DNA of 64,000 nt from contig NC_135244.1 of assembly GCF_947623445.1 (NCBI RefSeq), forward strand, positions 13,078,860-13,142,859. The letters run 5' to 3'. This document shows, piece after piece, positions 39,750 through 57,249 of this stretch. This DNA is from Clavelina lepadiformis. Lineage: Eukaryota. The stretch's first letter is position 1; every line of letters starts with the position of its first letter. Under the pieces are notes generated by a model. The model worked only from the letters and a program-made list of their open reading frames with translations. It was not told the DNA's origin and searched no databases. The translations under genes and the position numbers were made by a program.

Positions 39750-41994
39750 CATTGAATATGGTCTTGTAGTTTCTTGGCAATGATAGTTATGTGTAGTATA
39801 TTATGTAATCGACGTTATTGTACACTTAGGATTATGGATAATATAATGCATCCAGTGTCCTGTGGTCATTTTATCAAATCTTGTCGTACATGCACTTATA
39901 ATTCACAACGTAACTCTAAGTAGTTGTGTAGCTATGTTTGTTATAAGCCTTCCTTCTACATTATTGTAATCGACAAAAATATACCTAGAATTTACGTAGT
40001 TACTTTATGAATCTGTAAATCTTTCTATTTTGTAAACCCATGAGAAGTTAAGTTCTTTTTCCATTACGGTTCTGTTATGCAACAGTTTGTGTAATTGAAT
40101 GAGCCTAAATGTATTTCAAGTGTGTCATTGTACGTTTTACACGTTTGCTTCGTCCGAAATTGATTTCAAGCGTCTCTAATCTTCACATTTACTAGATTAG
40201 CTGACTTAGCAAGTATTGTCGTAGAAATCAATATTTGTAGCCAATCAAAAGTAGGGGTTAATTGGATAACCATGCATCCAATGTGAAAACGAATTGTTAT
40301 AAATCAGATGATACAGGAACGATTTTGCTGTGTTTGAGTGGAATAAAATCATTGTACTTAAGTGTAGTTGTATATGGCTGCAATCATAACGTAATAAAAC
40401 GTGGTATACTGTACCAGGATAAGAAATAAGCCTAGTATTCAAGATGTTACAGATACTGAATAACAACAAAAAGCTTAAACAGTTAACAAACATACAATAA
40501 AACCGACAAAGAAAAGCATAGCTTAAGTTGCAATTTCTAATGCAAAATTTTAATTCAATGCCAAGTGTTGTACCAACCATGTACATTGTTGGGGCTTATA
40601 CACATTGGCCAGCTGTTTGTCATATACACTCCCCTAGATTTTTTTCGATCGTCTGTGATTTCTGACTATTTTATCGACCGTGTTTCAACAAACAAACCCT
40701 AGTCATGCCTGTACAAGCCTGGTGAATTTACAAATCAGTTGATTTTTCCGTTTTGGTGGATGATGTGAGTTTATATTGTTGTAGGTAACGACATAAAGGA
40801 AACTTATACGGCATTATTTTTCTGTTACGGAACAAAGGAAATACATTTACGAAAAAAAAAAATTCACAGAAAGAGAGTTATGTTTTTCTCACTGTGTTTT
40901 TTTCTCTGAAGCCAAGGTAAATACAAATTGATAGCATTTGAAAAGTGGTTAGAAATATTCAATTGCCTACCAGTCGACGTGTTTTGAAAGTTTCCAATAA
41001 AAAAGCACTTGGTTATACAATGTTCAAGAGTTTTGTACGCTGTGTAAATATTATTGTAAGAATCGCACAAACCGCGCAGATGCTTTTGCTCAATAGAGAT
41101 TTTATATAGAAGTTACTGTTATCTTTTCGCATTACAAAACGTTTTCACTTGTTAGATGAAGATGATGAGCAATTTGTAGTAAAACAATGTTGTTTGAAGA
41201 AGGGTACCAATACTAGTTTACAGTAACATCATGGACAGCTGTTGCAAAGGTACATTTAGCACAAGAAGCCTGATATCTGGCTTCATTTACTAAGTCAATG
41301 CAATATCGTTTCAGTGGCTATGCTATATCTTAGATACTTGTCAAACGGAGTTATTGTGTGCCATATTAGGTTTTTTCCTTTATTTAATCCCAATGTAAAT
41401 AAAGGTTTTGTGCTCAATTCCATGTATATGCAAGGCAAATACCACATGACAAAGAGGCAAAAGGTATAGTGCTTATTTTGAAGGAGTGTTGTGTAAATCT
41501 TCAACGAGAGTGGAAAATACGAAAGAAAGCAAAGACAATGAAATATTGTTTAACTTTACCCTTTAATATTGCCGACTCTGCATTAACCAACGGAAGACAA
41601 GCCATGTTTTACGCATTGGTAGGGAATTTGCGATTAGACTTTATAAAATTTGTCGGGCTCTTGCTAATGTTTCTTGAGGTAACTTACGAATAAATTTATT
41701 AAAGCAGATTTAAGCAAACACAACATACAGTAAATTGGCTCTATTACAAAGAAAAAACTTTGAGCAAGTGCAGTAAATAGTTACTTGTAATATACAGATA
41801 TTACGTTTACAGTTAAATTCTAAAGCAAACAGGTGGGTTGCATTATTTATGAATGCACGATTGATACAAACTAAAATTATTCATTTCGTAAATAACTGAG
41901 TTTACAATTCATACTGTTACTAATACTAGTGTCCTAGTAGTATGATATAAAATTAATCATCTTTACTGTGATATAAAAGGTTTACTACATCGTC

Positions 41995-42852
41995 ATGTCG
42001 TCACGAAGAACAGCTTCAATGTCAACTAGCACGTCACTGTTAAACAGTTCGGGAAGCGGGAAAGAACTCAGGTCACATATCCCTTCACTTTCTGATGGAG
42101 GAAGAATGAGTTTAAAGGATATTATGATATGGAGGCAATTTACACGCAATTTGAAGCTGCGAGTTCAAAGCAAGCAATTTGAGAAGCGTTCGTTCTGTTG
42201 GGTAAATTTAGACAATTAAAATCTGCTTATTATTATTAATATGCATGCTTATAAGCTGTATTTCAAAAACTAGTAACTTTTTGCTTAATTACTTTTTGGC
42301 TTGTCAGTGGGATAACAAATCTCTATCTGGAAGTACCGTAAACCGTGAAACTGCTTTTGAAGTTGAGCCAACTTACAAGATGGATCCCGAAAGGAAACCA
42401 TCAGACACAAGATGCAAGGCCATAATCGATGAATATTTGCAGCAACGCTTAACAGAAGTTGCTTATGAAAGCGCAAATGTTAAAAGCCTTTCTGGGTGCC
42501 ATGATGAATTGAAATATTTTTTGTTCATTTCATAATGCCATATGCCTAATAATAATATAACACCTTCTTGATATTTTTGAACAATATTTAATAACGCATT
42601 TATAAAATCCATTCATTTTTTATATTTTCTAGTGAGATTGCCGACCAGATCAAAACTCGATTGAAATCAATACCGTGGCCACCAAGATACAAATGCGTTT
42701 GTTACGTAAGCCTTGGCCAAAAAACGGGACAAGGGCTCTGCGTTTCCAGCATGTGTGCCTGGGATTCCACTAATGATAGTTATATCACATGCTCCTATCA
42801 GAATTCCTCCATATTTTGTGTTGTAACAGTTTTCGCCGTTTATCACGAATGA
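41995..42852 (+). CDS. Tctex1-domain-containing protein (dynein light chain Tctex-type / TCTEX1D-like), about 204 aa. Exons: 41995-42201, 42308-42495, 42633-42852 (stop TGA at 42850-42852).
   Basis: Exon 3 translates to (G)EIADQIKTRLKSIPWPPRYKCVCYVSLGQKTGQGLCVSSMCAWDSTNDSYITCSYQNSSIFCVVTVFAVYHE*. This is the conserved Tctex-1 C-terminal fold (RYK.VV.V.IG...GQG....S.C.WD...D......F.N.SLFCVV.VFGVY). Exon 2 reads ...VNRETAFEVEPTYKMDPERKPSDTRCKAIIDEYLQQRLTEVAYESANVKSLSG and exon 1 is a Ser-rich N-terminus. Donors are tgg|gtaaat and gg|gtgcca. Acceptors are tgtcag|tgg and ttttctag|t. Phases are consistent, and the summed exon length of 615 nt is a multiple of 3. AATAAA lies at about 43082, downstream of the stop. 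Confidence 0.7.
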
Positions 42853-43454: not shown

Positions 43455-46400
43455 CTACAAACAAGTCATCATTCGACCGGTAGAGTCTAGTATTGCCCTG
43501 GATTCATAATCCTGGCTATATTCAGCTCCATGCGGTATATTTGTTCTCAGTATTTCACCGGATTCGCGCCTTCCATCATAATACGAATCGCTGGCGGCAT
43601 TAAAATTGTTACGATCAGGACAAAGCGAGTCTTCGGACATTACACTAGTACGCCTCGTGCCTTCACTGGCACGTACGCCATCGGACATTCCATCTTTGAC
43701 CGTGCCTCTTTCTTGGGATGCTGCTACAGGTGTCATCACATAACGGTGTTTATCCGAAGCTTTAAGGCCATGGCGGTGAGTAACATTGGTGGTGATATCT
43801 GGGCTACCATCGCGCGACTTTGAAATACAATGCATTGCTGGACTCGAATCTAAATCAGGTGTGCTTTGGTAGAAGGCTGAATCTCGCTGACTGTCAGTGC
43901 TGCATGGCTCACTCTGCTTATATTGCGTTTTACAATTAGATGGCACGGGATCGGTAAGTCGCTGTACTTCCAAGTCATTTTCGTCTCTGTAATGGCCACT
44001 CCAGCCCTCGGGATGATAGGGTCTCGTTTCGTAATTTATGTGATTATCCTGATTTTCAATGATGGTACTTGAAATTAACGATTGTCTGCCTCCGATTGTT
44101 CGAGTAAGAGAAGCCGGGTTGCCACACGATGATCCAGCACTACTACTAGCACTAAAGTCATTTACAATAGGATCGTCCGACTCGGAGCTGGTGATAGAAC
44201 GCCGTTGTGAATGGTGTGCTATGGGCCGAAGAAGTTTTACCGAATGTTTGTCATACTGTGTCGGTGAAGGTGTAGAAGTATTAGATGTTAGTAGTCGTCT
44301 AGTTTCTGGGTGCGGGTCTTCGCAATGTGAGCAAGTACTTTCATTAGATCTTGTGGGTTGCGAAAATCTTCGCGAAGCTGCTATGGGGTAACCTTTTTCC
44401 CAATCCAATGCAGACGCAACCGAAGTAGTGTTAGATAAAGTGCTAGCTCTTTGAAACTCCGGACGTCGTTGTAGATTAACGTCTTCTTTGTCATAACAAA
44501 GGTCCCGACTTTGTAGCGCTTTAATGTGATTCATCGTTTTAGAGTGGGCTTGAAGCCGCGGTTGACTCTTGTATGGGTCTGCACGGCAAGTATTTGAGTG
44601 TTGAATATGAGCACACTCGCCATCGTGTGTACATGGGCGAGTGCGTTCGTGACCGTACAATTCGTTAGGATGACAGTGACGTTGTAAGTGGTCGTATGCG
44701 TCTTCTCCTACCTGTCCAACCAAGGCATCGTGAGGTAGGCAAGGTGCCTTTGCGGTCACAAACATTTCGTCTTCATGACTTCGACTTTGGTTTGATTCAT
44801 TTTTTGCGTCTAACATTCGGTCGTCGCTCATCCTACGTAACTGAGTCGATGACGAAGAATGTTGTTGTGTAATTGCTCGCCTTTGGTTAGGAACGGTGCA
44901 AGATTTTTCTGTTAAATAGAACAAGAATTGTGTCAGCTATCAACAAAATTTAAATTTAAGAATATTCATTTAATGAATAACTTAGTAACCTCTAAATTTA
45001 AGCTACCGTGTGTGTCGGACATTACAGTATCAAAAAACAAAAACGCTGAGTAAACGTTGCCTGCAAAAGACATGTTTTTCTATCTTACCTCTTGCCGGCA
45101 TGTTGTGAGAATTAAGCATGGAACCTTCATTTGGGTGGGTACCAACTAATGTTTCATTCCACATACGCTGTAGTTGCCCTTGCGACTAAACAGATTATTG
45201 AATTAATATTGTAACCAATGAAACAGATGTAGTCGATGACGTGTAAAAATACTAATGATGCAATGCAACAATAAAATTTAGGAAGCAATAAATGCAAATT
45301 ACTCGTTAAAACTTTAACATGCTTTTCAGAATTCAGGATGAAAGTACAGTAATTCTTTTCTTTTTTCACATTGGTGACGCGTTACGCAAGTGCAGTAAAA
45401 AAATTTTCTTCAGTGAAACGTTGGAATATATCATTACCATGGCTAACATTATAATAATCTCATAGTATGTTACAAACACTTACACTTGTTGCCTGCGTGG
45501 TCGCCGTCGAGTTGTGAGTAGTTGCTGAAGAATAGCGAGCTGGTGTGTATTGCTTTGAAAACGACATACTATTGCTAACGTAAGACTCTGGCGACCTCTT
45601 GCGACAGCACCAGGTTCGATCAATACACCGACTGTATTCACTTCTGACCTGAAAAGTTTTATTAAAAATCACAGTTAAGACAATTGTGGAATTTGGTTTA
45701 AATATCCAACAAAATAACCGCCGTTGCGATACGCTAGACTGAAATAGATAACAATAAACCGTTAGCGCCCTGTCTTAAACAGCAGATCGCTGTAGTTATA
45801 ATCGGGACACATGTTGAAAGGCCATGTCGAAAAATTCAATTTAAATTCATCATTAATTAAATATTTATTATAATGACGGACTTAAGGTACACAAAATCTG
45901 CTCACAAAAGAAAATCTAAAAATACAAATAATGACACATGTGTGCGTAATGGTTCTTCAAGGTTTGAATATTGTCATTCGCGATCCTATCAATTTAATGT
46001 ATTACATTATATATCAATCCAAGGTTACGCAAACCAGTTGTATGACAGGTTCGTTTTCCTAATGTCCAATTCAAAATTGAAATTCCCCCCCTGTGAACGA
46101 GTACAAACTCCGACATATGAAGACATGTTACACGCATATATTTATCCAAGCGTAAACCAATGGACAGTTTTTCTAACAATTTGAAGATTAAGGCAGCTTA
46201 TACGATCGCCATTAGCAGCAAAACACCGGTACTTTTAAGGTGAAAATATTTGTGTCAAATTCTAAAGTTTACTTGTCAAGTGAGATATCAGATTATCTTG
46301 TGAGGAACATCCGAAGTCAAAGGATATACGCTTTTGCAAATGGAGGGTTTCTCCTTTTAGCGTCTACACTATTCATCACGATGAATGAAACCAGACACTG

Positions 46401-49400
46401 GCTTAAGATGTTTTTACCGTAACGCGAAGATTATTGAAAATGACATCATACTGTATCATCACTAGAACATGTCATATTAGTTCAATGACTACAGAAAGTT
46501 TCATTGAATTGTAAACGTTGTTTCTGAGTATTAACGTATATGCCAAAAATATACTTATACCTATACAGATAAACATAAGTTAATACGCTTCATTGCCACA
46601 TTCTATACGATCAACGGAAATTTTATACGCCTTATTTTACCCAACTTGCTTCGAAGACGCGCTAAGTGACGGCCCTCTGGCAGTCATGCTTTATTTACAT
46701 TGCAAATGACGCAGTAAAAAGGCCGTGCCGTTGCTGCCACGTTTTTATCAACAAAAGCTGCACAGCGTATCTAACTATACTCCTGATAAATAGTTGAAAT
46801 ATCCCCAAAGTAGCTTACCTTCTTCTGGAGCAAGCAGTGGAAGACAAATATAAATAGCCCTTGGAAAGCGTTAAAAACGCAGAATAAGTAAGCCATAATA
46901 GGTGCTTGTTCCCACACCCACAATATTCCAAACGCCCAGGTTATACCAAGAAGGCATAAAAGAACAGACGCACCACGAACAGCAGCCCTGTTGTATACCA
47001 ACAACATTTTACAATTTTATCATTTACACAATAATCTTTTAACGACCAACAACAAGTTAACTCACTTAACGCTGTTGACTTTTGATGCGTCTGTATACGA
47101 GATGGTGTGACGGTACATTTTGAAAATAGTAATCGAAAGAAAGACGAGGTTGCACAAAATTACTGCGCACACGGGTCCAACAAAACTCCAAATGAAACCA
47201 GAATCAACTTTGAGCCAGCAAGCCTGAGTACTACCATAGCCATTACTGTCAACCGCAGCTGAGACTCCAACAATAACGGCTGGTACACCTGATAACAGCA
47301 AAAAATATTCTCAGTTGACCGCAGCAAGACTTACATGAAGAAGCATTGTAGCGCACTAGTTCGGAATATTTACAAAAAACTCACCGTAACCAATGAGATA
47401 ATACCACTTCCATCTCGATCGTCCTTCAAATATTTCGACAAGCATTACGTAAAGCTGAAATCCTTCCAAAGCCATCCACATAAATGCTGCTAAGAATGTG
47501 TAATGCAAGATGCCAGCTATTACGGCACACGGCACACGGTTGAAGGTTTGGTTGATACCAATTAAAAATACAGCCTCGGCAACAAACAAACTCAGGCACA
47601 AGTGTTTGTGAATTGTGTTGCGATCATTTTGGAGGTTTCTACGCAAAACATGACATAGTTAATATATTTGTATATTTAGGTTTTCTGATGTTTCACTGTG
47701 CATTGCAAAATAAACAAAATTTGGGTTATGATATTTTTTTACATAACGTTTGATAATTTATAGAAAATAAAACAAAATAGAAGCAAACGCACCTGAAAGC
47801 AGAAAATGTGTAAATGCAAATGGCAAGGCATACTAAGGACACGGATACCCCAATGCTGCTTACAATACTCAAAGCAAGTTCGTGGGTTGGAGAAGGTAAA
47901 GGAGTTGCAGCCACATTTACCAGTACAGCAAAACTCGTCAAATGATTACAGGAACATTCTGTGTAGGTCGAATTTGTAGTAACAACCTCACAGCCATCTG
48001 TCCGCCAGCTTCCGATCTTTAAGCTACCAATTGAAATGTGATTCAACAAGATACATAATATAAAAATTTTTAACTACTGCTTTGCAGAAGAACAACTTGT
48101 GGAATAAAGATTATAATTATTTCATCATCTTACCTCTGTGAGTAGCTCCAGTAGACACATTTTCTCTGGGCTTCAGACACCTACGCAACAATACAATGTT
48201 TCAAAATTAGATGATTACGAGTCAAGTCAGTGAGCAACCATAAATCTACTTGTAATTAGAAGTTAATGTTAAATGTTGAAGCAAACGTATAATTTGACCT
48301 GTAAAGTAGCATTATTATGCACATAAAATGTGACGTTCACTAGTGGATTGTAGGTAATGTCATTCTTACATTAGTAATCCTCAGACTTTCTATCCAGTCA
48401 CATGACATAGATGGTTACCATATATGTTACAATGGCCAATTAAAGACTTCTGCTATTGGCCGTTTAGTACACGCAAGCAATGTTGGTATTCCACCGACTA
48501 TAAGTTCACTGACCCAGAATGTTTGTTTGGTATCTCAGGGCGAGTCGTATTTCCTGTCTGAGTGTTCAAACTAAACTGGTTCAAGATATCGTCTAATTTC
48601 AGAGTGGCGATTTTAAAATTGTTAATTTGTAATTCAGCTTGGTTTAATCTAAAACAACTCCTGGCCAAACAAACCAGTATTAATCTTTACAAAATATATG
48701 TTGTATGGCAAAGAAATGTTGTCCATTTTAATTGAAAGTGATAATATCCAATATAATCGATCGTTGTCTAAACACTTAGTTATTATTTGGAAACCCTGTT
48801 ACTTTCATGTTCATCGAAACAGAAAGATTTTGTTATGTCTGTATCCGTATTAGCTTATATCAAGAAAAAAACGATTTAATTGTATAAATATTATTTAAGA
48901 CATGCCAATGAATTATTTAAAAGCGGATAACTTCAAACGCAACTCAAGTCGATCAAATATAAAAAAATCAATCAAGAAAAAACAATTTACATCACAGCCT
49001 TCTTTGAATCAAAAGAACCAGTGAAAAATTCACCTGTAAATTTTTTAACACAAAACGTATAGAAGGATTACGAAGTGCATTTTCCTCGGATTTCACCAAA
49101 GATGCAGATATCACTCGAGAGTCAACTTTCCAATCTTCAGCCGGTTCAAGACCTTCCACGTTAGCTTTAGCGAATGTTCCCAAGTTGTTATATAATGCAA
49201 ATATTAAAGAAGTAACATCTACAAAAAGAAAACAATGTTTAGTATACCTACTGATATCGTTGCTGCAGCATGTACAACGACATAAAAGATAGTATAACAG
49301 TAAACAGTCTACATAATTCATAATTGCTCATGCGAAGGTTTCATCGCAGTAGTTGCAATGAATGGAAGCTGCAATTTATTGCGGATCAAAAATATCAGAA

Positions 49401-52400
49401 AGATTGTAAATATTGCATATGTTAGCAAACCCAAAATAATGATTAAAAATGTTTAAAAATAAAAAAATTATCTTAGTTCAATTTTAAGAAAATTATTCTC
49501 TGATCAGTGATCAGTGATCTTTAATATTTAATCACTTTATGGATCAAACGGATCATATATTAAATTAGTCAAATTATATCTTTTGAATACAAAGTAAATT
49601 CTGCACCGTGTTGTTCTTTTCTAATAGTTTCTCGTGGTATGATGATTTTATCTTCGACATTTGACCATTCAGAAGCTGGGTTATTGGAATTTCGTGGAAA
49701 TACAACAGTCTCAGCACGTGGTGTTTGTACGATATCAACACGAAGCAATAGTTCTGGTTTGGCCACGGTAGTAGAATCTGCACAGCAATTAGTGCATACT
49801 AGTACGTTATATAGTAAAGAAAATACTGGTATCAATTTGTTTCATATGTAAATTTTACTACTCTTTACAATTCGAAAAAAATTAAAATCACAAAATCAAG
49901 ATATAAAAGCTAAAGTTTATCGTAAGGATGCAAGCTACAAAATGTTTGTAGCCTACAGACGTTGTTGTCGACCAACCTTTTACTTTCGACTGACTTGACA
50001 GGTCTCCTGCTAGATATTGTGACATAACCTGGCCAGCATTCTCAACACTGGACATAATAGCATCAACATTGCTGTATCTGTTATCATCACTCATTTCATC
50101 CCAAGCTGCTTTCATTCTTTTATCCAACAGAAAACTAGCCGAAGTTGAAACATCCTTTAAATCGTACGAGAAAAACAATTGTCAAATATTATTTTGTTAT
50201 TATTCAAACTTCAACTTGTGAAGGAAATACTAAATCAAACATATTTCAATACTCATGTAGCAGGGCGTAGTATTTTAAGATTGAAGTCTCGTTTATGCTT
50301 AAGGCTGTTCAATTTTGTGGGTTACGGAATAATTTATCTGACCAATCTCCAACGCAAATGTGCTGATAAACGTCACTTTCCGCATTTCCAACAAAGGTCG
50401 AGTCGATGCCGGTAAAACGATTTGCTGAGAAAAAATTGCTTTATGCGCCCTTCCAATTTTCCCGAGCTCAGTTGGCCAATAGAACGTTATCTTTTCGCTA
50501 TTATCATTCACCACCAAATTTAAATTCGCTACCGATGGTTAAGAAACGTATTATACAAACCTGATTTAAATAGATGTTACACAAAATAATCGCATAATAC
50601 TGCCGTTTCTCAATAGGCTTTGAGTATAAGTGCAAGGAAAGAAATCGGATCTGGCCAAAAACTTTGGGCATCGAACGTACTTGAAACTTTCATCAAGTCT
50701 TATATACATGACTATATACCGCGCAAGCAAGACACCAAGCCATATTAGCGTTCAGGCATACGGGCGACGAAAGAAGTCATCTCACTGTTTATTTTTGCTC
50801 CATCTTTTCTTCGGTGACGCAAAGCGATGGAAATGAGTCAGAAACTGCCTTGATGTTCGGCATTCTTTGCTCTGACGAGGATTTTGTTTGTTTTACGTCT
50901 CTTTGCGTTGCCCAGAAAGAGAATATATGTACGGGCGGGCGGTCTATTCGAGATTATTTTATTCACACGAGCCTGATCAATAACTGAATACACGTGACAT
51001 AACGAAAAAGATAGATTTTGAACTAGCGAACTGCTGTCGTAAGAGGTTTCCTTTGACGCATCGGCGGGATGTTCTCCCGAAATGAATCAATTTTTAGGTA
51101 AAAAAGTTTTAAATATAACGTCGCTGCAATGCCAAATAACTTGTTACATAAACCCGTGAAAAGTCAGATAAAGTCAGACGAAAAATACCCACCATGTTAG
51201 GCAATTTGATAAAATTAATTTGAAATTTGATTTCACCGGTATGGCCTAAGCCTTATACATGGCTATTCTATTTTATTATCAGGAATACGATGATCAACTT
51301 ACATCTACAAATTGATAACTTTGTGTTTCCGTCGGAGATAAAGAACTTTCGAGCAGCACTGAGGTTATTTCTTTCATGATTTGAGCCGTTCTTGTTATGT
51401 CGTCAGATGTAATTAACTTGTCATCTTGAGTTATCGTCGATAACCCGCGTGACAAACTGTTTGAAGCAGTCAACGGGTCAGCTTCACCTATGTATAAATA
51501 CGACCGGTATTAAGTAAATAGAGCAGAGGTTGTTTTGACCAAAAGTAGACCATCGATTCTCTCTGGTAAGAAATTACATGCATACACAGGACTTACTTAC
51601 CATTTTTTAAACTCGTTTCGATCTCACTGATCCATGAAAGGCATTGTGACATGTCGGGCCCATTCATATCCCACTGTGCTTGCCGTGTAGCTTTGTCGTA
51701 CTCGCACCGCCATTCGACAAATACTGAAGGTTATAATTTAAGAACGTTTAGTGTTTTTAAGACGGAAATAAAATCATACGCCCCACTTGCGAACGATAAA
51801 CGCCACTTGGCAGATGGGTTTTGGAAAACGTAATTACAGGCCCTCCCCCGATGTCTTTTACCTCCAGCTACAGACGCATTGTTGTCAACCAAATTGAATT
51901 TAAAGTGAACCCACTTTTATCACCGCATCAATCTTGCTTTGATCAAACCCGTCTGCCCATGTATGAATTGCAGCGTAATAATAGTGGCTTATCACAACTA
52001 TCCGCAAGTCTCAACAAAAAATTTCCGACCGACTTCACTGTTACAACAATATACATGGCGTCTCGTGACGTAAATGCGAGGTTAGTAATATGGGGTCTAG
52101 CTTATACGCAGGCCTAGATAAACGTCTGAAACCAATCACTTGCTTATATATGTCTATTAATGAAAAAACAAAAACCACACAAGTCTTAAAACAAGTGAAG
52201 TGAAAATAAACGCAATATTGTGTTTGGCAAGGCGTTTGCCCAACCTCATAACCAATATGCGGCGCTAACGCTTTTACTACTGGTATATTAGCAGTCTAGC
52301 CAATTGAAAGAATGCACTTGATATCATAAACCATCAATGAAATCGACCACTTACTCGAACCAGATTTGAAAAGTATAAATTGGATGCATTTACATACCTT

Positions 52401-55400
52401 CACTACGGTTGGGACAATGGGCGCGACAAGAAGTGTCGCCTCTGGTTTCAAGGCAGTTAATCCCATCCCTTGTTATTGCTGGACAACTCGGCACTGAAGG
52501 GACGACTTCTGATGTGTCTGGAAACAATGTGGGGGAGGGAGGTTCTGTTTCACGCGAAGTATGAGTCAAACTGGTTGTAGTGGGCGGTGTAGTGGTCGTT
52601 GTCGTTGGCTTTTCACCTGTTGGGCATAAATTAAACAAATCTTGTAAATTTGAAATTTGAGTAGCTACTTGATAACCGAACAGTTAGCATATCACAGCAA
52701 CACGTCTCGCACCCTTATGACATGTAAAAACGCAAATATACAATAAGTTTATGATTACCCATTTTCATAGCGTATAGGCAGTGAAGGCATCTTTGCAAAA
52801 AATAATATCTACCAACCTTCTACTGGGTCTGGTAATCCGAAATGAAGGTTGTAAAAAACTGCTGTGGCCGTGTTAGCTTCCCATGCATACAAAAGTCTCT
52901 CCCTTGGATTGTACATTAACGACGTAATATTGTAGCTTACAAAGTTGCGTGAATTTGAGCGTAGAGCGGCTGGATACGAAAACATTCTCCTCGGAGCCAA
53001 CCTAGCACTTCGTCGACCCCGTAATCCTATTGGATCGGAGGGTGAGTAGGGTCGATTGCTATCAAACCCAATAGATACAGATCGGCCATTCCCAGAATTG
53101 AGGTTAGTATTGTACATATATTCAATACTACCGGAGCGTGAACCGACAACGTACACAACACCGCATATAACAAAAGTGTGCACTGCTGAGTTATGTGGAT
53201 AAGACGTTTTCCAGGTTCTCTGCAAATGTTTGTAAAAGTTAAAGCCATATTCTCTGAAATAATTACAAAAAATGCAGAAGTAATCCAGAAAGTACGTACC
53301 TCGATTTGTAAAGTATTTTTGTTCATTTTACTGATTATCAGTCTCCCAGAAATATATGTGTCAGTATATATAACCCACAAGCCATCTTCATCAACAGCCA
53401 AGCGTATGGTATTGGAACTGGTACGTCTGTTTCTACTTAGCCTGTTTTGTAGAGGGATAGAACCTTCACGCATTCGAATTTGAGAGCGAAAGTTGAACTT
53501 CAAAATCTGACGACTTTGCGCCTGTGCATTGATTGACGAAAATAGGGCAAATAATTAAATAAATGATAGTAAAACGTGGAACACAGCAAGGTATATAAAA
53601 TTAGTACCTTAACGTAATACATGTTTCCATCATATATAACGTAATTGGTTCCGGAAATAGGAGCTGGTAAATTGTAAATCTTGATTGATTCCCCAGCAAG
53701 AAAATCGTCAGTGTTTTCGTATTCCTAATTTAAAAAGCAGTATAATGTTGGTATTTACTGCAGTGAAAACAAAATTCTAAAAGTTCAATTAAACTACAAA
53801 ATTAAAATACAAAAAACTCAAACACTAGTTTACCTGTACAGTCAGCTGGGAACTCGGAACAAAATAAATGTGGTTTGGATTGTAAACGGAATCTTTGCTC
53901 CATGATCCAGGTCTTGGCTCCATAGGAACCGAAAATGTCCTATTGCTTCCGATACCAGTCAGGGTGCCAGGACATCCAAACACTATGAGCACAGATACCA
54001 AGGCATTAACTTTACGTTTGTTCTTGGCAAGTAGCAAAATATCAATTCGTAACAAGTCCAAAGTATTACAGAAATGTTCTTACTATACTTGACACATCGA
54101 AATGTCACTTGAAGATATTTGTGTGTTCCAGAGCAAGGGTCAGGAAAATTTTGATCGGAGACAGTCAAAATACATTGAGTTTTGTTGTTGCACCTGTGAA
54201 AAGGTACATAATATTAACATTCTAGAAATCTGCAGACGCCATGTATCCAGTTCTGACAAGCGTGCAGATAACCTTTAGCAAAACAAAGATTTTTCTGATA
54301 AGATAACGTTTAATGGAACAATTTTACCTGTGCACTAGTGCAATGGGTTCCACTAGTTTTAAAAATTTTGCAACACGCGTTTTTTATGGTACATGATAAT
54401 AGCCTAAGTGCACGAAAAGTATGGGTAGCAGGGCTATTACCTACGATCCTTCACACGCATTGGAGCATAAAATTTCATCCAAATTAGGTTTATGGCGCGT
54501 TATATGACATACCAGGTGGCAAGTACTCTGTACTTCTGTACAACACACTGTCCTTGTTTTCATTTAAAAAAAATTGCGAGAACATGCTATAAAAATTTAA
54601 CAGTTTAAGAAAATACTTTATCATCTTGAAACGTATGAAGATACAGGATTTGGAGGTACAGAGATTAATCAGAAGATTACAAGACGCGGCTTGATTTATG
54701 GCTGTAATGCTTCAAAGAGTAATGCGAGATGCGACTGAAGTCAACACAGCGCACCGATTTTTCGAGGATTTTGAAAATATGCTGGGAAACTTGCTTGATG
54801 CAAGGTCATGTTACGCAAACAAAGGTAATTCAAAGAATGCCAACAAAAATAAGCATTGTTCACAAAGACGTTTATATTAATCAATTTCCTTTAGTCTATG
54901 CGTGTTTTTGTCTTGCTGACCTATACTTTTAGTTGCATTGCAATGCGTGGTACGAAACGCATGGTCGCACGTTATTAATAACAAACACACAAAAGGCAAA
55001 GATATAGTCTGAAATTTCGGGAGTATATTGGAATTTTCATTAACGCTCAAGTTTCGATTTTAATTTTCTTATGAACAAAACGTCGCGGTGATGAACTGCG
55101 GAAGTATTGAAGCGTTGATTCACTGCACATTGCATTTTACCAACATAAACGTATTAAAATGACGCGGAAACCGTCCTATTTATCGAGAGCAATAAAGGAT
55201 TAAACAGTTTAAGTAGACATCTTTCACAAAGACAGACTTACTTTGTCGACATAATATCAGAAGCCTCCGGCAAAAAGCACGCCGTGTTTTTCATCCATTT
55301 TGAAGAAGTGGCGCACGTCTCTGCGTTTTGACGACCGTATTCCGCTGTGACCACCTATAATTCGGTTAATAACGCATAAAATATTAATAAACATGAGGAT

Positions 55401-57249
55401 TGGTCTTATACAATAGGTGACCATTTCCATATTCGAGCTGAAGGAAAAAATACAGGCTAGTCGTTAATGACGCTCGAAAATAAAACCATACATAATTATG
55501 GTCTGCTCTAGCGCCAAACGTACATCGTCTAACAGGAATTGTCGCTAATCCAACTGCACTATTGATAAAAAATGTAAATTTTCAACATAAATGATGACAA
55601 ACTACATGGAAAGATGTCATATATCAAATGATTACGCACAAACTTAGGCTACCTCAATAACATCTGTTCCTGGACATCTTAGTACAATAGGGTATCCTTC
55701 ACATGCTAGTTCGTTAGATACAGGAAATCTCTTTCCACCAGGCAAACCAAAATTCAGTCGACCTAATGATAAAGACAAAGGGTAAGAATTTTATATCGCC
55801 AAAAAAGTTTAAAAAAGGCGTATGTCAGTGATGATTCCTATTGCATTAGGCCTACTTGTATTGAGGAACACCTTTGGTTAAGTGTAAGGTGAACAAAAAC
55901 GAAAATTGTTTGGAGTACTAATTGTGCTCCATTGCTTTCATCAACGGACGGTAATAGCCTATCTCAACAAATGACTTGTCAATAACCACAGCACGTTTGT
56001 CTAATTTGCAAAGGATCAGTAATCAGAAAAATACGAAATTTATTAGGCTTTATTTTTATAAAAGGGAGTAAGTATAAATATCATTTCTGCTAAGCATTCT
56101 ACTTCGATTGTTTTTTTTTTTAAACGTACGAAGGAGTCAACAAGTAATTGAGTCATGAAGCAATGCGCAGTAAGTTTGCATTATAATTATAACATTCCTT
56201 AAAATAGTCGGCAAAAGACACCAAATCCCAAAAACGGTTTTCCACTGGGACAAAACGGTTATTACAGTGAAGGAAGAAGACTAATTAATAAGGAAAGGTG
56301 AATTTGTCACTCCCGAAATGTAATCAACTTTGAACAAGAATCACATCTGTGATTAAATCGATTAGAACGCTGTGTGCTCTTTAGACTACACTGTTGAAAT
56401 GCTGAAATGTTATACATTGGCATAGTTGTGTGTCTGGTTTTCACTTTTCACTATGGCTGAAGCCTACTGAAGTGTCACGAATAATCTGACCGGTTTACAA
56501 AATTTCCACATACGAAACAACGGTTTGCATGGTAAACAAAAATCAGGAGTGTTAGTTTAATTAGTATAATGTTTGAAACAGAGAGTGGAAGATAAGATTA
56601 TTTGCCGAAGTGAGATTGCAGAAGACGACGCCCTCTGTTACAGAACTATCAATCGAATAAACAAATAGTACTTCATTGATTCATGATAGTTGCTATCGCT
56701 TTCTAATAAACTCTCATTAACTTCAAAAAGCTAATCCCAAAAAACCTTGAACCCAGCCTTTAAAATCGGGCGTTCTACATAACAGACTTAACCATTGTAT
56801 CGTTTCACAAGAACGCAGCAAGACTTCAGCAATCAAAAAGTTTTTCTAATAAGCGTAGAAACAAAAGATTATTTGTCTTGGATAAACTATCTTTCAAATA
56901 ATATTGTCATAGCGATCGACGTGGCTTTATCGCATAAATTATGCGTAGGTAAGTCACCCTTAGTCACGAATTGTTAACAACTTCAGGTCAGGAATAAAGA
57001 CGTTAATGCGGATATATTTACATTTCGTTATCACAACGAAAGAACTTAAGTGATTGAACTAGTTTAACAGTAAGTTTACTAAAAATGAAAAGTGAAACTG
57101 TTAAAAAAAAGTTCATAAAACTCGCTAAAAGAAAACAAGTATGATATGAATTTAACAATTCCATTACCTTCGACATTGCTGGTTAATAGGAGCAAGATAA
57201 GGCAGCAGCCTGCACAGATAGCAATCCTTCCCAGCCTGAGAATATACAT
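43455..57249 (-). CDS. Latrophilin-like adhesion GPCR (ADGRL family). Domain order 5'->3' on the minus strand is signal peptide, rhamnose-binding lectin (RBL/SUEL), olfactomedin, Ser/Thr/Pro-rich stalk, hormone-receptor motif (HRM), GAIN with GPS, 7TM, and an about 570-aa Ser-rich cytoplasmic tail. Confidently placed exons (minus strand, start-end in + coordinates): 57148-57249 (ATG plus signal peptide [28 protein letters not shown]), 55653-55762 (RBL N-part), 54084-54193 (RBL C-part), HRM 51601-51723, GAIN 51303-51487, GAIN 49034-49218, 48134-48180, GPS+TM1 47793-48023, TM2-3 47385-47638, TM4-5 47066-47288, TM6-7 46819-46987, tail 45484-45648, 45089-45185, and last exon 43455-44908 (stop at 43455-43457). 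Approximately placed exon regions: 53830-54010, olfactomedin about 52809-53503, stalk plus HRM start about 52390-52640, GAIN about 50299-50517, 49888-50178 and 49569-49835. One exon encoding the middle of the RBL domain (between 54194 and 55652) was not located.
   Basis: Translations match vertebrate latrophilins segment by segment. RBL: ...[21 protein letters not shown] | ...[36 protein letters not shown]. After RBL: [47 protein letters not shown]. Olfactomedin: ...[38 protein letters not shown]..., ...[26 protein letters not shown]..., ...[29 protein letters not shown]: ...[44 protein letters not shown]: ...[13 protein letters not shown]...[13 protein letters not shown] | [15 protein letters not shown] | [35 protein letters not shown] (GPS). 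7TM: R|[29 protein letters not shown]...[36 protein letters not shown]...YLIGYG | [58 protein letters not shown]... | ...[48 protein letters not shown]. Tail: [23 protein letters not shown]... | [15 protein letters not shown]... | Ser-rich last exon ending ...[10 protein letters not shown]. All junctions have GT..AG and phases that match across every adjacent pair of exons I checked. Confidence 0.85.

Follow-up and report, generated by a model that had tools for sequence, protein, structure and literature searches.

The 64,000-nucleotide window of Clavelina lepadiformis DNA analysed here (the whole stretch, contig NC_135244.1, positions 13,078,860 to 13,142,859 of the forward strand) carries a latrophilin gene on its minus strand. 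We are highly confident that the locus is an intact, single-transcript latrophilin (ADGRL, adhesion G-protein-coupled receptor family I) of this ascidian and the tunicate counterpart of vertebrate ADGRL1-3. The gene runs from an ATG at 57249 to a stop codon at 43455 in 22 exons. Spliced together, these give a coding sequence of 5007 nt and a protein of 1668 aa, with an uninterrupted open reading frame (ORF) and GT-AG boundaries at every intron. The encoded receptor consists, in order, of a signal peptide, a SUEL/rhamnose lectin, an olfactomedin (OLF) domain, a Ser/Thr-rich linker, a divergent HormR (HRM) domain, GAIN/GPS, a secretin-type seven-transmembrane region (7TM) and a long tail that ends in -MTCL. 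The locus is one more ascidian case confirming the published view that OLF joined the latrophilins at the base of the chordates.

The model was built with the best database match as a tblastn guide, followed by an exhaustive search of splice junctions; the guide, the top match by far, was the 1668-aa C. lepadiformis protein P0001/CAK8689707.1. Exons 1 to 4 lie at 57249-57168, 55762-55653, 55354-55242 and 54193-54084 (minus strand, as for all latrophilin features below), exons 5 to 8 at 53982-53834, 53724-53608, 53521-53300 and 53219-52817, and exons 9 to 12 at 52616-52398, 51723-51601, 51487-51303 and 50154-49977. They are followed by exons 13 to 16 at 49777-49607, 49218-49034, 48180-48134 and 48023-47793, of which exon 15 (48180-48134) is a micro-exon of 47 nt, by exons 17 to 19 at 47638-47385, 47288-47066 and 46987-46819, and by exons 20 to 22 at 45648-45484, 45185-45089 and 44908-43455. 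The assembled protein is identical across all 1668 residues to the RefSeq entry XP_076812674.1 (ADGRL3-like, C. lepadiformis). It agrees with the ENA/GenBank allele CAK8689707.1 (UniRef name "Latrophilin Cirl") at 1660 of 1668 positions, 8 residues being different, and the same 1668-aa product stands in two independent public annotations.

Domain architecture of the Clavelina latrophilin

A Pfam scan of the full 1668-aa model matched five domains in order, with scores far beyond chance. The N-terminus encoded by exon 1 (57168..57249) supplies the start codon and a signal peptide, read directly from the sequence as a hydrophobic stretch. Exons 2-4 (54088..55709) encode the SUEL/rhamnose-binding lectin at aa 46-137, identified by Pfam (SUEL_Lectin, PF02140, aa 55-135, E 5.5e-19) and by its match to the latrophilin-1 lectin structure 2jx9 (E 2.4e-32). 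Directly after the lectin sits OLF, a five-bladed propeller at aa 140-433 encoded by exons 5-8 (52824..53980). It is scored by Pfam (PF02191) at E 8e-55 over aa 159-356 plus a second, C-terminal stretch. An AlphaFold model of the lectin-OLF region, compared with Foldseek, matches the crystal structures of the same region of LPHN3 and LPHN1 at E 1e-36 to 1e-38, including LPHN3 5AFB (3.9e-37) and 5FTT (E ~1e-37 to 1e-38). The OLF core is confidently predicted, and against OLF-only chains it aligns with TMt 0.83-0.86. A Ser/Thr/Pro-rich linker, delimited from the model sequence at aa 436-476, spans intron 8 (52495..52817).

Beyond the linker and HormR, GAIN and GPS occupy aa 560-839 (exons 11-16, 47921..51458) on the evidence of Pfam, alignment and fold, GAIN scoring E 2.9e-19 at aa 560-768 and GPS E 1.5e-15 at aa 796-839. 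The GPS reads CSCNHL/TSFAVL at aa 828-839, where the slash marks the predicted HL/T autoproteolysis site between aa 833 and 834 (47944-47936), followed by the tethered-agonist sequence TSFAVLVNV; its Cys, Trp and His-Leu-Thr positions are invariant in our 20-sequence alignment. The 7TM follows at aa 855-1087 (exons 16-19, 46849..47875), with a Pfam 7tm_2 match at E 1.1e-69. Taken whole, the protein finds human ADGRL3 (7wy5) as its best PDB match (E 4.8e-211, aligned from lectin through 7TM), and ADGRL3 and ADGRL2 head the PDB matches, above ADGRL4, E5 and D1. The cytoplasmic tail comprises aa 1088-1668 of the model (43458..46848); what is shared in it is limited to the terminal T-x-L and some short motifs (SSESDDPIV...). 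The final MTCL is encoded at 43469-43458 and the stop codon at 43457-43455.

What is the evidence for a HormR domain? The candidate lies at aa 477-540 (exons 9-10, 51629..52494) and was located with a custom profile, an alignment and a fold match. A hidden Markov model made from the HRM regions of 115 vertebrate ADGRLs aligns end to end with Clavelina aa ~480-552 at E 5e-11, and the same profile detects the Ciona and Styela orthologues at E 1e-13 to 1e-17. No sequence in the 20-sequence alignment departs from the four latrophilin HRM cysteines or from the W, P-D and W positions. The AlphaFold2 model of aa 473-853 has a mean predicted local distance difference test (pLDDT) score of 83, with 74-90 over HRM, and this HRM+GAIN model aligns over 375-388 columns with 4DLO (BAI3), 4DLQ (CIRL1/latrophilin-1) and 8VTI (ADGRL3) at Foldseek E-values of 1e-19 to 1e-23. 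A BLASTP comparison of the region with primate ADGRL1 aligned the C-terminal half alone (E 2e-5), which is insufficient by itself. From profile, alignment and predicted fold, we conclude that a divergent HormR domain is present in the Clavelina latrophilin. Unlike its Ciona and Styela counterparts, it has Cys490 in place of the Trp of a W-P motif that the other 18 sequences of the alignment keep, as well as an additional cysteine, Cys499 (the Cys490-Cys499 region lies at ~52455-52425), and the two residues may form a lineage-specific extra disulfide.

These results bear on a first-pass annotation of this DNA, made from the sequence without database searches. The lectin-OLF-HRM-GAIN-7TM order that it proposed is borne out, five domains by Pfam and HRM by profile, alignment and fold, and the motifs that it quoted, including the C-terminal MTCL, are all present in the assembled protein. 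The motifs that it listed already show in a chain of coding pieces when the minus strand from 43 kb to 58 kb is translated stop to stop. Its possible refutation, a Pfam scan in which OLF goes unscored, did not materialise (E 8e-55). For HRM the proposal holds in substance, through profile, cysteines and fold, but the Pfam scan that it had recommended gave no match there; a scan of a crude concatenation of ORF pieces did not score HRM either and found five of the six domains (SUEL_Lectin 1.5e-18, OLF 2.1e-55, GAIN 1.1e-18, GPS 2.5e-12, 7tm_2 7e-61). The middle lectin exon reported as missing exists, as exon 3 at 55354-55242. The limits given for the OLF region, 52809-53503, are ORF boundaries and not exon boundaries, the domain extending over exons 5-8 from 53980 to 52824. 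Finally, the suggestion of a PDZ-ligand-like C-terminus gains some support from conservation, T-x-L recurring in ascidian and vertebrate orthologues with the exception of Styela P0003.

The vertebrate latrophilin ending -VTSL is a class-I PDZ ligand that binds SHANK. Clavelina -MTCL fits the S/T-x-hydrophobic pattern of such ligands. The corresponding ends are -RMMTCL or -RMITNL (-MITNL in Styela A2) in the ascidian group to which the gene belongs (group A, below), -SMITNL in a second ascidian group (group B) and -QLVTSL in vertebrates; T-x-L is not kept in larvaceans (-GDVEV) or in Styela P0003.

The domain order of the Clavelina protein is identical to that of vertebrate ADGRL1-3, as represented by human ADGRL3 (7wy5), mouse LPHN3 (5AFB) and the HormR-GAIN region of rat CL1 (4DLQ), overall identity being 35-37% and 7TM identity 56-58%. 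Also common to both are the HL/T cleavage site, the TxFAVL tethered agonist, the C-terminal T-x-L and an intron between the lectin and OLF exons, at the site of the vertebrate KVEQK insert. Unlike the vertebrate proteins, the Clavelina receptor has R/H/M for D/N/D at an OLF metal-binding triad, a shortened OLF loop and a 38-aa Arg-rich OLF insertion, and its HRM and cytoplasmic region fall below Pfam thresholds. We note that the lectin/OLF intron (exon 4/5 junction 54084/53982, ...RCVKY/MFGCPG...) occupies the position of the alternatively spliced vertebrate KVEQK mini-insert. A 14-aa insert stands at this junction in the C. savignyi model and may be read-through.

By homology with other latrophilins, we propose the following mechanism. 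The signal peptide would direct the receptor to the membrane, where the extracellular lectin and OLF domains would engage partners on other cells. GAIN would cleave itself at HL/T and leave TSFAVL... as a tethered agonist, whose release or exposure would activate the 7TM and G-protein signalling, and the C-terminal T-x-L would dock PDZ scaffolds.

A derived OLF domain and two ascidian latrophilin groups

What might the Clavelina OLF domain bind? Latrophilins bind FLRT through OLF blades II-III and teneurin through the lectin domain. We aligned the Clavelina OLF with that of mammalian ADGRL3 in mouse LPHN3 numbering, checking the anchor on C203, C227 and C385. The metal-binding triad of mouse LPHN3 OLF, D332/N380/D436 (PMC4396693), is R/H/M in Clavelina, E/H/K in Ciona intestinalis and S/H/S or S/H/A in Styela. 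Eight residues are mutated in FLRT-binding-impaired LPHN3 (PMC4396693), namely P244, R246, T267, K269, R292, R294, R324 and G326, and just R294 and R324 are kept in Clavelina. In addition, the NYHDTSPYRWGG loop of OLF is shortened. An Arg-rich insertion of 38 aa (aa 356-393), delimited by alignment, lies in frame within exon 8 (52944..53057), precedes the last OLF blade and contains the motif R-G-R-R. According to the alignment it is not found in vertebrate ADGRLs, is present in Ciona intestinalis and is shorter in Styela; AlphaFold predicts it to be disordered (pLDDT <50). Because the metal triad and most of the FLRT-impairing residues are lost, the OLF ligand in Clavelina is probably not FLRT-like, and the remodelled domain is probably metal-free. 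Variation at the triad is known within the olfactomedin family (PMC6719662), and FLRTs have been reported in vertebrates only (PMC10084454). The derived OLF with its basic loop is a modest lead and not a discovery.

We considered whether the 38-aa insertion could be a retained intron and rejected this reading: the reading frame runs through it, both public annotations include it, and Ciona intestinalis has a homologous sequence, Styela a shorter one. In C. savignyi, the model without the insertion also has no sequence for one propeller strand, and is probably mispredicted. A second basic motif, R-N-R-R, occurs in the shortened OLF loop at aa 257; Ciona does not strictly conserve the two furin-like R-x-[KR]-R motifs, which lie at aa 257 and 368.

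The C. lepadiformis gene belongs to what we call group A, the Ciona 'lectomedin' type. The group A proteins of Ciona, C. savignyi and Styela clava have the same lectin-OLF-HRM-GAIN-7TM order, and Clavelina and C. savignyi are 83% identical in the 7TM and 56% in OLF. Like that of Clavelina, the Ciona and Styela group A OLF has His at the N380 position, has lost D436 and carries the Arg-rich insertion; the D332 position differs, being Arg in Clavelina, Glu in Ciona and Ser in Styela, and the insertion varies in length. A second, group B paralogue is represented by Clavelina XP_076812163.1 (P0142, outside the window), Phallusia 'Latrophilin-3' A0A6F9DJW2 (P0310) and C. savignyi H2Y6J5 (P0138). 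Its domain architecture is as in the Clavelina group A gene and its C-terminus is -SMITNL, but its OLF keeps D332 and N380, has D, E or Q at 436, retains the ANYH.TSPY loop and lacks the insertion. The group B 7TM shares only 38-44% identity with that of the Clavelina group A gene and falls outside the cluster formed by group A and the vertebrates.

In neighbour-joining trees, midpoint-rooted and made without a non-chordate outgroup (no Cirl, no LAT-1), group A joins vertebrate ADGRL1-3 with a bootstrap of 93 for the 7TM and 100 for HRM+GAIN. We propose, at roughly even odds, that ascidians keep two lectin+OLF latrophilin lineages which have evolved in a mosaic way, group A combining the 7TM and GAIN that most resemble vertebrate ADGRL1-3 with a remodelled OLF, and group B a more vertebrate-like OLF with a diverged 7TM. 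If so, the OLF function of the chordate ancestor was partitioned or re-targeted in tunicates, and the two groups offer a natural experiment on the role of latrophilin OLF without FLRT. The contrast between the group A and group B OLF domains could help to find OLF ligands that predate FLRT.

Competing readings and the age of the architecture

Several observations weigh against our reading of the locus. Pfam HRM (PF02793) is silent even at E<=10, on the whole protein and on the isolated region, in part because of the Cys490 replacement and the extra Cys499. The Pfam Latrophilin C-terminal family (PF02354) has no match in the full-model scan, and it is absent from the precomputed Pfam lists of every tunicate orthologue checked. 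The Clavelina exon joins are drawn from homology, splice signals and public annotations. The ratio of non-synonymous to synonymous polymorphism (pN/pS) between the two Clavelina haplotypes, 0.33 (8 synonymous and 9 non-synonymous differences), fits a constrained gene weakly, the counts being small: it is based on just 17 differences. Finally, the neighbour-joining OLF tree puts group A apart and group B with the vertebrates, and orthology to ADGRL1-3, as opposed to a second tunicate paralogue, is suggestive and not proven from trees of this kind without an outgroup.

Could the OLF exons be part of an adjacent olfactomedin gene in its own right, the fused model being an annotation artefact? In favour of this, the Ensembl models of Ciona savignyi are fragmentary (P0012 without the 7TM, P0002 skipping part of OLF). 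However, the introns are short, GT-AG and consistent in phase, at 101 nt from lectin to OLF, 109, 86 and 80 nt within OLF and 200 nt from OLF to linker, and introns of 80-200 nt between the lectin, OLF and linker exons leave no space for the terminator and promoter of a separate gene. The fusion is moreover found in a single chain of 674 aa in Ciona intestinalis (P0121, the scanned cluster member of 'lectomedin 1 alpha-like' NP_001231978/AAP91742), which runs from lectin through OLF and HRM into the first part of GAIN; it occurs in at least five tunicate species and in all vertebrates, and two independent public annotations give the identical 1668-aa product. We therefore regard a separate OLF gene as exceedingly improbable. 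It is likewise hardly credible that the locus is a decaying or non-functional copy with a degenerate OLF. Such a copy might show the change of the D332/N380/D436 triad to R/H/M, the alteration of six among the eight LPHN3 residues whose mutation impairs FLRT binding, the disordered 38-aa insertion (predicted pLDDT <50) and the silence of Pfam HRM. Set against these are a 22-exon ORF that is intact with canonical splice sites, an OLF core that is confidently modelled and matches solved propellers at TMt 0.83-0.86, a highly conserved GPS and 7TM (the latter 83% identical to that of Ciona savignyi), and the pN/pS of 0.33. The derived OLF features, insertion included, are also present in the Ciona and Styela orthologues, hence old and maintained, and metal-free OLF domains such as that of gliomedin are normal family members (PMC4396693; PMC6719662).

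An intact latrophilin with an OLF domain in a tunicate raises the further question of whether the lectin+OLF architecture predates the chordates, or is at least older than the literature states, as the first-pass annotation had suggested. This reading can appeal to reviews in which OLF is, in shorthand, 'absent in invertebrates' (PMC6629964), a tunicate being colloquially an invertebrate. Tunicates are chordates and the sister group of vertebrates. C. lepadiformis is a tunicate and hence a chordate, and features around the locus that look invertebrate (35% GC, transposons, MVP) do not make it a non-chordate. Schöneberg & Prömel 2019 (PMC6422961) report latrophilins with the rhamnose-binding lectin, OLF and HRM in tunicates (Ciona) and lancelet and date the acquisition of OLF to the early chordates; they find no OLF in hemichordate, echinoderm, mollusc, nematode, arthropod, tardigrade or brachiopod sequences. 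Three LEC (lectomedin/latrophilin) orthologues had already been listed in Ciona (Kamesh et al. 2008, PMC2396169), and the latrophilins without OLF are elsewhere called 'non-chordate latrophilins' (PMC10084454). 'Absent in invertebrates' is a simplification of 'absent in non-chordates', and should be read as such.

We searched the lectin+OLF region against 1.84 billion representatives at 50% identity and took the top 150. Lectin and OLF were matched together in 11 of these, and the 10 that were looked up (all except P0126) are without exception from tunicates, lampreys or jawed vertebrates. An amphioxus lectin+OLF protein was not identified among those 10 looked-up representatives of the top 150, and the lancelet case rests on PMC6422961. 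One candidate for a non-chordate occurrence, the Logan protein P0159 (lectin+OLF+7TM, 31% identical), was rejected, as it comes from a larvacean tunicate close to Oikopleura. The same architecture is found in Ciona savignyi, C. intestinalis, Styela clava, Phallusia mammillata and Oikopleura. An origin before the chordates, or earlier than published, is thus very unlikely on the strength of this locus, which leaves the accepted age of the architecture as it was because PMC6422961 already reports it in tunicates and lancelets. Two further results argue against the earlier dating, the database sequence Ciona NP_001231978/AAP91742, which has lectin and OLF, and the ADGRL3-like RefSeq annotation: the Clavelina latrophilin is already in RefSeq, and its architecture has already been published for tunicates. 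Of the two lineages offered in the first-pass annotation, a non-vertebrate deuterostome that retains the architecture proved correct, in the form of an ascidian, and a lophotrochozoan did not; nor is the animal an ambulacrarian.

How does the Clavelina gene compare with the protostome latrophilins? Drosophila Cirl and C. elegans LAT-1/LAT-2 combine a lectin, in some cases HRM, GAIN/GPS and a secretin-like 7TM (PMC6422961, PMC6900090); protostome latrophilins have no OLF, and Cirl has no HRM either (PMC6422961). With its OLF, the Clavelina gene is of the chordate type and not of the Cirl/LAT-1 type, the protostome type being defined from PMC6422961 and known here by description.

The search also returned a lamprey 'ADGRL3-like' cluster (P0131, with Lethenteron reissneri XP_061437359.1 and relatives) in which Pfam finds a SUEL lectin, OLF and an ephrin-receptor ligand-binding domain. 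These genes lie on small contigs and could be a lamprey-specific family or assembly chimeras.

Genomic neighbourhood and a second assembly

Two genes lie downstream of the latrophilin gene, both convergent with it. One encodes a dynein light chain of the Tctex-1 family (~41995-42852, plus strand), and the other, present with its 3' end, is that of the major vault protein, MVP (up to ~39749, plus strand); each was mapped by way of the annotated reference locus. Contig CAUIVY010000001.1 of assembly GCA_961645235.1 runs collinear with the window at 98.75-99.95% identity, and Tctex-1 and MVP are the neighbours there too. Compared with that assembly, the window is without a 375-bp segment in intron 19 (~45732-45739) and a 2.4-kb segment between Tctex-1 and MVP (~41328-41335). 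These two non-coding differences represent polymorphisms of the insertion/deletion type, either between haplotypes or between individuals, and the segments are possibly transposon insertions.

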